From a virus: a stretch of 55,764 nt of DNA. A model generated the notes under the pieces. The model ran no database searches. It was not told the DNA's origin and saw only the letters and a program-made list of their open reading frames with translations. Positions within the stretch are counted from its first letter, which is position 1. Every line of letters starts with the position of its first letter. Of this stretch, positions 36,312 through 36,598 are shown piece by piece. The stretch is taken from the IMG/VR virus record IMGVR_UViG_3300033402_000018; one strand, written 5' to 3'. The translations under genes were made by a program, and so were the position numbers.

Positions 36312-36514
36312 AATTTCCGGTTCTTGCTACGATATGTTGGTGTAAGCGCGTGACAATTCGGGCAAAGCAACCGCAGGTTGTCGAGCTTGTTATTTTTGCG
36401 GTCGCCGTCCCGGTGGTCTAGCTCAAGAGGAATTGGAGAGTAACGACGAAAGCGCAGAGATGGCATACTATCTAATACTAAGTTTTTAGCTCTGCCAAGT
36501 ATGGGGGATAGCAC
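36278..36514 (-). CDS. short HNH endonuclease (homing-endonuclease-like, possibly truncated) inside the tRNA cluster
   Basis: LELDHRDGDRKNNKLDNLRLLCPNCHALT His-Me finger. GTG 36514 or ATG 36466 start. Its 3' end overlaps tRNA(UAA) on the opposite strand. No N-terminal CxxC pair. Confidence 0.6.
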   Translation of the reverse strand: MLSPILGRAKNLVLDSMPSLRFRRYSPIPLELDHRDGDRKNNKLDNLRLLCPNCHALTPTYRSKNRKFGAVGGTRTRK

Positions 36515-36598
36515 TGACTGTGCGGCTGGGCCTTATAAACCCGGAGTAGCTCCTGATTAGAGTAGACGGCGTGGGTTTGATTCCCCGATCCCCTACCA
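36503..36598 (+). tRNA. aberrant tRNA-like gene, Ile-type (UAU and GAU anticodon-like loops), CCA encoded
   Basis: acceptor GGGGGAT/ATCCCCT + A + CCA. T-arm CG(T)GGG-TTTGATT-CCCCG with one bulge. Hairpin 36526-36544 has loop (C)CTTATAA(A). Second hairpin 36548-36564 has loop CTGATTA. 96 nt, non-canonical geometry. Confidence 0.45.

Follow-up and report, generated by a model that had tools for sequence, protein, structure and literature searches.

A phage tRNA(UAU) family with an additional anticodon-like GAU arm, and the possible role of this arm in isoleucine identity

The window analysed here is the whole 55,764-nucleotide (nt) stretch of the IMG/VR virus record IMGVR_UViG_3300033402_000018, and our subject is a 96-nt tRNA-like gene at positions 36503-36598 (Table 1). 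The gene follows a cluster of serine and leucine tRNAs and a degenerate HNH endonuclease remnant. Genes of the window lie almost wholly on the plus strand and include those for an NAD-dependent ligase, an AAA ATPase, a protein with an OmpA domain, an SprT-like protease and a PTH2-like protein. Such a content is consistent with a large phage, or an element resembling one, from metagenomes of peat or soil. Comparison with other viral sequences places the 96-nt gene, very probably as a real and functional member, in a family of phage tRNAs with anticodon UAU and an extra arm. The gene of this family is real and conserved, its structure is under constraint, it is bound to UAU, and the phages that carry it include some of Escherichia coli. 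Its extra arm copies an anticodon stem-loop in size, displays an invariant GAU and is strictly coupled to the UAU anticodon.

Table 1. Features of the tRNA(UAU) gene and of its surroundings in the window
Feature	Positions	Strand	Remarks
tRNA cluster Ser(GCU), Ser(CGA), Ser(GGA), Ser(UGA), Leu(UAA)	35639-36311	+	ARAGORN and Rfam; upstream of tRNA(UAU)
Degenerate HNH endonuclease remnant, 62 amino acids	36278-36466	-	Pfam HNH_3, 1e-6; between tRNA-Leu and tRNA(UAU)
Whole tRNA(UAU) gene, five helices including the extra GAU-loop arm	36503-36598	+	96 nt; A73; encoded CCA
Acceptor stem, 5' strand GGGGGAU	36503-36509	+	7 pairs with AUCCCCU; G1.U72 wobble
Compact D-arm GCAC / UGACU / GUGC	36511-36523	+	5-nt loop; reads G18 A19
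Anticodon arm CUGGG/CCCGG, loop CUUAUAA	36526-36544	+	UAU at 36534-36536; C31.A39 apposition
Extra (pseudo-anticodon) arm GCUC/GAGU, loop CUGAUUA	36549-36563	+	4 base pairs, 7-nt loop; GAU at 36555-36557
Linker AGACGG from extra arm to T-stem	36564-36569	+	6 nt; equals a variable loop of class I length
T-arm CG(U)GGG / UUUGAUU / CCCCG	36570-36587	+	bulged U at 36572; U56 replaces C56
Acceptor stem 3' strand AUCCCCU, A73 and CCA	36588-36598	+	stem 36588-36594; A73 36595; CCA 36596-36598
Terminator-like hairpin GAGCCGAAG...CUUCGGCUC, then U-tract	36671-36708	+	about 75 nt downstream of tRNA(UAU); read from the sequence

Read from its 5' end, the gene runs through GGGGGAU, A, GCAC, UGACU, GUGC, GG, CUGGGC, CUUAUAA, ACCCGG and AGUA, and then through GCUC, CUGAUUA, GAGU, AGACGG, CG(U)GGG, UUUGAUU, CCCCG, AUCCCCU, A and CCA. 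Position 36510 is A8, the sole linker nucleotide before the D-arm. The initial annotation of this DNA had described an acceptor stem with discriminator A and encoded CCA, a compressed D region with a 5-nt loop, two consecutive hairpins with UAU and GAU loops (the first closed, optionally, by a C-A apposition) and a T-arm with one bulged T, and all of these are present in the sequence. A direct repeat of GAGTAG had been placed at 36546 and 36562; it exists, though two bases upstream of these positions, at 36544-36549 and 36560-36565. It is not kept in orthologues, and we rejected it as coincidental. The hairpin beyond the gene is absent from the output of the terminator scan because its loop exceeds 8 nt; it is the probable end of the tRNA transcription unit.

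Single-sequence predictors do not recognize the window copy. ARAGORN makes no tRNA call at 36503-36598 with default or relaxed threshold, and the general tRNA model RF00005 of Rfam gives no match even at E<=10, so that the gene goes undetected as an elongator tRNA at the standard thresholds of both. Its sole Rfam match is tRNA-Sec, with 17.1 bits for a gathering score of 47, and its minimum free energy (MFE) is no better than that of shuffled sequence (z = -0.45). On these tests alone the gene could be dismissed, since ARAGORN, Rfam and the MFE z-score are all negative; the comparative evidence for it is far beyond chance. ARAGORN, which had been proposed as a check, thus makes no call for the window copy but reports tRNA-Ile(tat) in orthologues; applied to 103 representatives of the family, it gives tRNA-Ile(tat) for 72 and fails on 28.

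We fetched 80 metagenome loci (numbered with the prefix L) via homologues of the upstream SprT-like protein. Loci L001-L007 are independent assemblies of the window genome, two of which, L001 and L002, have the 96-nt element in identical form. The same order of four Ser tRNAs and Leu(UAA) is found downstream of SprT homologues in L015, L017, L019, L021 and L027, and a tRNA(UAU), for which ARAGORN gives tRNA-Ile(tat) of 89-94 nt, occupies the syntenic position after them in five independent metagenome lineages. The comparison with orthologous clusters that had been suggested earlier therefore finds the element kept at the same place. Its orthologues lie in L019/L029 (80% identity), L015, L021, L027 and L017/L018; in L017/L018 and L027, ARAGORN reports a tRNA-Ile(tat) of 89-93 nt directly after tRNA-Leu. 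Across the six synteny-derived orthologues the loop YUUAUAA, U72 and A73 are kept, the second loop reads C(U/A)GAU(U/C)(A/G), and the stem that carries it covaries (GCUC/GAGU, GCGC/GCGU, GCCC/GGGU). The earlier proposal of a non-canonical tRNA-Ile(UAU) whose variable arm is outsized is supported by these tRNA-Ile(tat) calls in orthologues, by Y32, U33 and A37, and by the covarying second hairpin.

The HNH remnant behaves differently. Its core (window 36331-36437, minus strand) is swapped in L002 for about 80 nt of unrelated sequence (about 6750-6830) between identical flanks, and the HNH is absent from L017 and L027, where tRNA-Leu and tRNA(UAU) abut directly. Because the element is identical while the HNH core is replaced in L002, the variable part of the cluster is the HNH and not the tRNA-like gene; the HNH is the intruder. 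As an observation on the HNH itself, the swap between L001 and L002 is a cassette-like polymorphism between otherwise near-identical genomes, and HNH genes adjoin tRNA(UAU) also in phage Phosso and in several IMG/VR loci.

We aligned the window gene with 21 relatives of its subfamily (22 sequences) under a five-helix model. In this alignment 97.1% of the cells are paired, versus 69.4% in column shuffles (none of 500 reaches the observed value) and 30-45% after a shift of the partners by 1-3 columns. Of the 28 pairs, 25 have changed on both sides. All seven acceptor pairs are paired throughout (100%), six of them with double changes; the D-stem is 98.9% paired, with double changes in three of its four pairs. 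Every pair of the anticodon stem (6/6) and of the extra-arm stem (5/5, 98% paired) shows double changes. The T-stem also covaries, its outermost pair being GC in 8 sequences, CG in 7, UA in 3 and AU in 2, and since this pair covaries so strongly the branch is of the 7/5 type; all 12 pairs of the acceptor/T branch are backed by covariation in the subfamily. RNAalifold, with no structure supplied, recovered the same acceptor, D, anticodon, extra and T helices.

Several oddities of the window copy recur in its relatives. The apposition at 31:39 is non-standard in 10 of the 22 subfamily members and is C.A or A.A in the window's clade; in many relatives it is U-A, C-G or G-C, and for this reason the design is best seen as a 7-nt loop whose closing pair is frequently not of the Watson-Crick type. 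An expanded-loop tRNA, one of the earlier descriptions, is accordingly not the best one. The bulged U of the T-stem is common to the window and its orthologue in L019. At the elbow, the window combines G18 A19 with U54 U55 U56, so that the 19:56 pair is kept as A-U instead of G-C. A D-loop GA goes with a T-loop UUU in 3 of 3 distinct sequences, GG goes with UUC in 125, and GG with UUU never occurs; the A19-U56 double change is also found in L103 and L111, which belong to a different clade from the window. Because this double change keeps the elbow pair, we see selection for the L-shaped tRNA fold in the window copy. The peculiarities of the window are lineage traits, not damage.

Two further ideas about the extra arm were discarded. 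It is not a recent duplicate of the anticodon arm, as the stem sequences of the two arms are unrelated within each tRNA, and the GAU loop does not pair with the T-, D- or anticodon loop, as the candidate partners vary while GAU is constant. Among side observations on the fold, members in L121, L150 and L181 have the T-loop GGCAGCA or GGCAGUA instead of UUCRANY, and in L121 and L150 the D-loop is CAGCA and lacks GG; D-loop and T-loop seem to have changed together into an alternative elbow. L370 shows a partial tandem duplication: directly behind a complete member stands a second copy of nothing but the 3' half, with extra loop, T-arm, 3' acceptor strand and ACCA.

The extent of the family was surveyed with three pattern scans of IMG/VR, each giving at least 120 matches, and the counts that follow hold among the matches listed. 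The first pattern was built on the features of the synteny orthologues; the second specified the anticodon loop, T-arm and UACCA around a long insert and left the extra arm free; the third specified the extra loop and T-arm and left the anticodon free. The first returned about 80 clean tRNAs of 91-95 nt among its matches (at least 120), and a family member is held by at least 242 of the viral loci that we fetched. In the second scan and the synteny set together, 59 of 63 distinct tRNAs have a 7-nt extra loop of the form Y-N-G-A-U-N-R, and in this set, which was not selected on the extra loop, GAU occupies loop positions 3-5 in all 59 hairpins. Position 1 of these loops is C or U, position 2 mostly A, position 6 any base and position 7 A or G. 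The equivalent of position 33 is thus A in 51 of the 59, with U in the window's own clade, and the equivalent of position 37 may be any base, often a pyrimidine. The stem has 4-5 base pairs in 56 of the 59 members; 50 members have 5 nt between the extra arm and the T-stem, and 5, the window included, have 6 nt.

Conversely, when the anticodon was left unconstrained, UAU was found in each of 112 distinct complete tRNAs bearing the extra arm. Their anticodon loop is YU-UAU-AN in 112 of 112, with an invariant U33 and with A at position 37 in 111 and G in one. Other over-long phage tRNAs of the same loci (Lys, Arg, Asn, Thr, Pro, Trp, Met) carry small tetraloop hairpins, none of them anticodon-like. 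Because these other long tRNAs have tetraloop-capped hairpins, the 7-nt GAU loop is specific to tRNA(UAU). The initial annotation took both arms as isoleucine-type: this holds for GAU, which is invariant across the family, but the second loop is not a second decoding anticodon, since it is without U33 and purine 37. A codon argument that had been drawn from an ATA in the leader open reading frame (ORF) in favour of the UAU arm turned out to be irrelevant, since AUA is a rare codon in the window as a whole (5.6% of isoleucine codons, 2.9 per 1000 codons overall; AUC and AUU are the common isoleucine codons).

The tetraloop hairpins merit a remark of their own. Class I phage tRNAs for Lys (UUU), Arg (ACG), Asn (GUU), Thr (UGU), Pro, Trp, Met and Gly are often 84-92 nt long, their extra length being a hairpin in the variable region with a 4-nt loop (GAAA, UAAC or GCAA), an insertion that is common in phage tRNAs. 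Loci with such tRNAs include L112, L117, L130, L150, L247, L268 and L427.

A BLAST search of cultured phages with the 96-nt element itself gave no match; with the window region, only the Ser tRNAs matched, and there is no close cultured relative. A search of IMG/VR for the exact 3'-half pattern of the element and the SprT protein also gave no match, and by these queries the lineage of the window was absent from it. With family members as queries, BLAST revealed the same architecture in about 28 cultured phages. These include the Sinorhizobium jumbo phage Phosso, where the gene is annotated as tRNA-Ile(tat) and stands beside an HNH gene; Synechococcus phages S-SRM01 and S-SKS1, in which it is unannotated; Xanthomonas phage Xoo-sp13 and Klebsiella phage KP13-26, likewise unannotated, as well as Klebsiella phage Opt-79; Pectobacterium phages PhiM1 (annotated as tRNA-Ile), Arno162, Arno18 and Wc4; Vibrio phages WD615, Pylo, River4 and 12VC501; and E. 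coli phages PCEc3 (annotated as tRNA-Ile), BEK6, CEB_EC3a, ESCO41 (unannotated), ETEP102, Opt-719, Phleasolo and Sadiya. The family is therefore under-annotated, the gene being missed or left without annotation in many phage genomes.

In the six gamma-proteobacterial phage copies that we read (PhiM1, KP13-26, Xoo-sp13, PCEc3, ESCO41, Pylo), the extra loop is CAGAUAA and the extra arm has five covarying pairs (AUCUC/GAGAU, AUCGA/UCGAU, AUCAC/GUGAU and AACAC/GUGUU). The anticodon loop of E. coli tRNA-Ile1 is CUGAUAA, from which the phage loop would differ at position 33 only. A73 is present in the cultured-phage copies as well. In the small virulent phages PhiM1, ESCO41 and PCEc3, tRNA(UAU) is among one or two tRNAs, with Arg(UCU) alongside in ESCO41 and PCEc3. 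A blastn search of 5,426 complete E. coli genomes with a member of the enterobacterial type gave no match.

What may the extra arm do? The explanation that we favour on balance, from sequence comparison, is that of a phage AUA decoder whose GAU arm mimics the anticodon stem-loop of tRNA-Ile(GAU) and so confers identity for isoleucyl-tRNA synthetase (IleRS). The features of the tRNA that would bear on isoleucine acceptance are A73, U72 and the GAU of the extra arm. E. coli IleRS is about 360-fold less efficient on a UAU anticodon than on LAU, in which L is lysidine, and residue W905 is responsible (PMC3575796). It is because bacterial IleRS rejects U34 that the GAU arm presents itself as a source of identity. 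In the proposed mechanism, the ribosome would read UAU on the first arm, which has U33 and A37 like a decoding loop. The host IleRS, which recognizes G34-A35-U36 and discriminates strongly against U34, would take its anticodon-type identity from the GAU pseudo-anticodon together with A73. A phage AUA decoder with a UAU of the unmodified type would then need neither the lysidine pathway of the host TilS nor an adapted IleRS. Reading by IleRS fits the pattern of conservation, as the equivalents of G34, A35 and U36 are invariant and the features that serve the ribosome only, U33 and purine 37, are not kept. As a precedent, a pseudo-anticodon arm engineered into the variable arm of a tRNA enhanced aminoacylation (PMC7590224).

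The steps of this explanation deserve different degrees of confidence. Charging of tRNA(UAU) with isoleucine, and the GAU arm as the site read by IleRS, are predictions drawn from the sequences. The specific mechanism, an arm serving as a handle for IleRS, is tentative, and we rate it somewhat short of an even chance. The broader evolutionary statement is a conjecture of much the same standing: phages may have evolved a natural pseudo-anticodon, with the synthetase reading the GAU arm and the ribosome reading UAU, and hence a TilS-independent decoding of AUA in hosts, E. coli among them, where IleRS rejects U34. We found no conserved partner protein within 3 kb of the gene across the 242 loci (the largest protein cluster reaches 22 of 242); because no protein family recurs beside the gene, the reader of the extra arm would be a host factor.

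A number of points weigh against an IleRS-read arm in a functional tRNA. IleRS is a class I synthetase and approaches the tRNA with the variable region facing solvent. An arm in the variable position is not obviously within reach of the anticodon-binding domain and would have to swing or stack into the place of the anticodon arm. The modified nucleoside t6A37 is a positive determinant for E. coli IleRS, and the 37-equivalent of the extra loop is not conserved as A. ARAGORN and Rfam both overlook the copy in the window, whose T-stem has a bulged U and whose 31:39 apposition is C.A; with -31.0 kcal/mol, its cloverleaf is 1.7 kcal/mol less stable than the MFE structure. Ordinary phage tRNA(UAU) genes of 75-77 nt without the extra arm are abundant too, so the arm is not universally required. 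Finally, allo-tRNA(UAU) species with a five-stem junction were inactive in E. coli (PMC5389517); those have an 8/4 branch and G73 or U73.

Alternative explanations may be ranged around the same facts. If the extra arm were that of a class II-like tRNA, leucyl-, seryl- or tyrosyl-tRNA synthetase (LeuRS, SerRS, TyrRS), which ignore the anticodon, could mischarge it, and AUA would be read as leucine or another residue. The long arm is indeed accompanied by A73, the discriminator of bacterial Leu and Tyr tRNAs, the other tRNAs of the window cluster are all for Ser or Leu, and a nematode nev-tRNA-Ile(UAU) with a variable arm is leucylated in vitro (PMC3333845). We nevertheless consider mischarging unlikely: a 3' linker of 5 nt rather than 1-3 and a loop of 7 nt rather than 3-5 are unlike a class II arm, the window's own Ser tRNAs have tetraloop variable arms and G73, and the strict coupling to UAU (112/112 of those listed) would go unexplained if the anticodon were irrelevant to identity. 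To our knowledge, an invariant GAU is not a determinant for Leu, Ser or Tyr. An invariant triplet does imply a sequence-specific reader, and this reader could be other than IleRS: an enzyme that modifies U34 and prevents misreading of AUG, a phage protein, or a defence nuclease against which the arm protects or acts as a decoy. Phage tRNAs are known counter-defence tools. A fidelity device would also be useful, given that unmodified UAU misreads AUG on E. coli ribosomes (PMC3575796). The exact size and register of an anticodon stem-loop, however, point to a reader of the tRNA-Ile anticodon, and a dedicated partner is not apparent among the proteins neighbouring the 242 loci. We know of no U34-modifying enzyme or nuclease that reads a GAU hairpin, and we give such a reader a minor share of the probability.

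Could both arms decode, UAU reading AUA and GAU reading AUC and AUU? In favour of a dual decoder are two stem-loops of full size, the 5 nt that follow the second one much as a variable loop follows an anticodon arm, and the U at the 33-equivalent in the window's clade. The family-wide A at this position (51/59) and the free choice of base at the 37-equivalent are incompatible with a ribosomal decoding loop, and AUC and AUU, as common isoleucine codons, need no supplementation; we find this reading very improbable. It is also conceivable that the molecule is a tRNA-like RNA without a part in translation, such as an IleRS sponge or regulator or an element of mobile DNA. HNH genes beside the gene in the window and in Phosso, the unusual D-arms and T-loops, and the conclusion that most allo-tRNA(UAU) species are unused in translation (PMC5389517) go in this direction. 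We give it a small chance, because the 7/5 branch, U33, A37, the 19:56 elbow pair, A73 and CCA are all conserved, the gene is embedded in ordinary tRNA operons, and it is one of the very few tRNAs of the small virulent PhiM1, ESCO41 and PCEc3. A decaying duplicate next to the HNH gene, as had been suggested early on, or a chance tRNA-like fold, would account for the missing ARAGORN and Rfam calls, the z-score of -0.45, the bulged U and the C.A mismatch. These oddities are shared with divergent orthologues (the bulge in L019, a 31:39 mismatch in 10 of 22), the gene is identical across assemblies while the HNH core is replaced, every helix is kept, A19-U56 is compensatory, and there are relatives without the HNH. 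Decay or chance is effectively refuted by the comparative data.

The family may be set beside known RNAs. Ordinary tRNA-Ile(UAU), such as tRNA-Ile2(UAU) of Mycoplasma mobile and the 75-77-nt phage genes, likewise have a YU-UAU-A loop, A73, a 7/5 branch and frequently G1.U72 or A1-U72, and presumably decode AUA without lysidine (PMC3575796). They differ in being class I tRNAs with a variable loop of 4-5 nt and no second stem-loop. In M. mobile it is the synthetase that is adapted (Arg865), whereas in the phage family the adaptation seems to lie in the tRNA. Class II tRNAs (Leu, Ser, Tyr), of 85-100 nt, also have an additional helix between anticodon arm and T-arm, but theirs has a 3-5-nt loop with no conserved triplet and is followed by 1-3 nt, compared with the 7-nt GAU loop and 5-nt linker of the family; the window, with its 7-nt loop and 6-nt 3' linker, does not fall in class II. 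Nor is it a tRNA-Sec, which has an 8/5 branch, a 6-base-pair D-stem and the anticodon UCA (here 7/5, 4 base pairs and UAU), or a lysidine-type tRNA-Ile2, whose CAU is converted by TilS, since every member has UAU. Features of an elongator tRNA are present in the window copy: a branch of 7 and 5 base pairs, the discriminator, CCA, U33 with a purine at 37, and the D/T elbow. So are all those of the family, namely the UAU loop, the arm with a 7-nt GAU loop, the linker of about 5 nt, the 5-base-pair T-arm and A73.

The closest published relatives in appearance are the allo-tRNA(UAU) of Acidobacteria and soil metagenomes (PMC5389517), which share UAU, a long extra arm, five-stem-junction variants, a compact tRNA-Sec-like D-arm with a tetraloop, and a peat or soil origin like that of the window's relatives. 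They are not of the same kind: their branch is 8/4 or 9/3 and their discriminator G73 or U73, of Ser type, whereas the family has 7/5 and A73, and in the window nucleotide 8 is an unpaired A. The two sets were compared by description only, and some sequences may overlap. Nematode nev-tRNA-Ile(UAU) (PMC3333845) also combine UAU with an extra arm and raise the same question about the synthetase, but they are eukaryotic, nematode-specific and leucylated, with an ordinary class II variable arm and no GAU loop reported. Engineered tRNAs with a pseudo-anticodon in the variable arm (PMC7590224) are similar in that a copy of an anticodon stem-loop recruits the synthetase while the real anticodon decodes otherwise. 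These are synthetic, with a His GUG arm on an allo-tRNA chassis and a HisRS (histidyl-tRNA synthetase) fused to an extra anticodon-binding domain; the phage family is natural and would have to work with an unmodified monomeric IleRS. Hairpins with a cognate anticodon that are read by a synthetase are known from mRNAs as well (the E. coli thrS operator; targets of yeast HisRS and of ThrRS, the threonyl-tRNA synthetase; PMC6542539), but these are regulatory elements and not part of a decoding tRNA. In the open-access literature, including a 2020 review of non-canonical tRNAs (PMC7609411), we found no account of a natural tRNA in which an auxiliary arm mimics an anticodon, although a prior description elsewhere is possible.

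If our explanation is right, this would be the first natural tRNA with an anticodon-type identity element on a separate arm. Synthetases that read the anticodon normally lock identity to decoding and so forbid a change of anticodon. Should the arm be a handle for IleRS, identity and decoding would be separable by a decoy arm, something so far achieved by engineering only. This would bear on the building of orthogonal tRNAs and on how codon reassignment can begin, and would explain an AUA decoder in small virulent phages that is independent of the host lysidine pathway. As cultured phages of E. coli, Klebsiella and Pectobacterium carry the family, the hypothesis is directly testable.

The surroundings of the gene in the window have features of interest in themselves. 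The block of four tRNA-Ser isoacceptors (GCU, CGA, GGA, UGA; window 35639-36213), a full set, is conserved downstream of an SprT-like protease gene in L015, L017, L019, L021, L022 and L026-L030, and in the window a gene for a PTH2-type peptidyl-tRNA hydrolase (37505-37768) lies about 1 kb beyond the Ser-tRNA cluster. The block and the hydrolase suggest that the tRNA-Ser pool of the host is replaced or protected, for example against a toxin that targets Ser-tRNA. Bacterial tRNA-Leu is expected to have a long variable arm; the Leu(UAA) of the window (36234-36311, plus strand) is only 78 nt long, with a variable loop of 5 nt. Its orthologues measure 78 nt in L017 and L027, 83 nt in L019 and 91-93 nt in L015 and L021, and the variable arm appears to have been gained or lost within this phage group. 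Contigs L003-L007 end at or near window 35450-36570, so that five of seven assemblies break inside or just before the tRNA cluster, likely owing to the repeated Ser tRNA sequences or to strain polymorphism.

Ahead of the cluster (window 35456-35613, plus strand) we observed a promoter-like site, TGGACA-18-TATACT, with 10 of 12 matches, followed by a strong terminator-like hairpin, AGCCGCCAAGATTGGCGGCT, with a T-run. The hairpin ends only 25 nt before the first tRNA of the cluster and may act on the operon that follows, as an attenuator or as a signal for processing. Between tRNA-Ser(CGA) and tRNA-Ser(GGA) lies a structured RNA of about 130 nt (window 35901-36030, plus strand). It is closed by the helix UCGCAG...CUGCGA and contains another helix, ACAGUU...AACUGU, as well as three hairpins, among them a T-loop-like CUUGG-UUCGAUC-CCAAG and a GNRA-capped ACCAGCC-GUAA-GGCUGGU. 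It is kept in L021, L015 and L030 and partly in L019. RNAalifold predicts 32 pairs, of which 4 show compensatory changes; the folding z-score of the 217-nt gap is -2.4, and neither Rfam nor ARAGORN gives a match for the RNA. Farther downstream, an ORF of 815 amino acids (window 50013-52460, plus strand) matches the shoulder domain (PF11978, 3e-26) and the repeat (PF17795, 5e-11) of the major vault protein, which is odd for a phage-like element.

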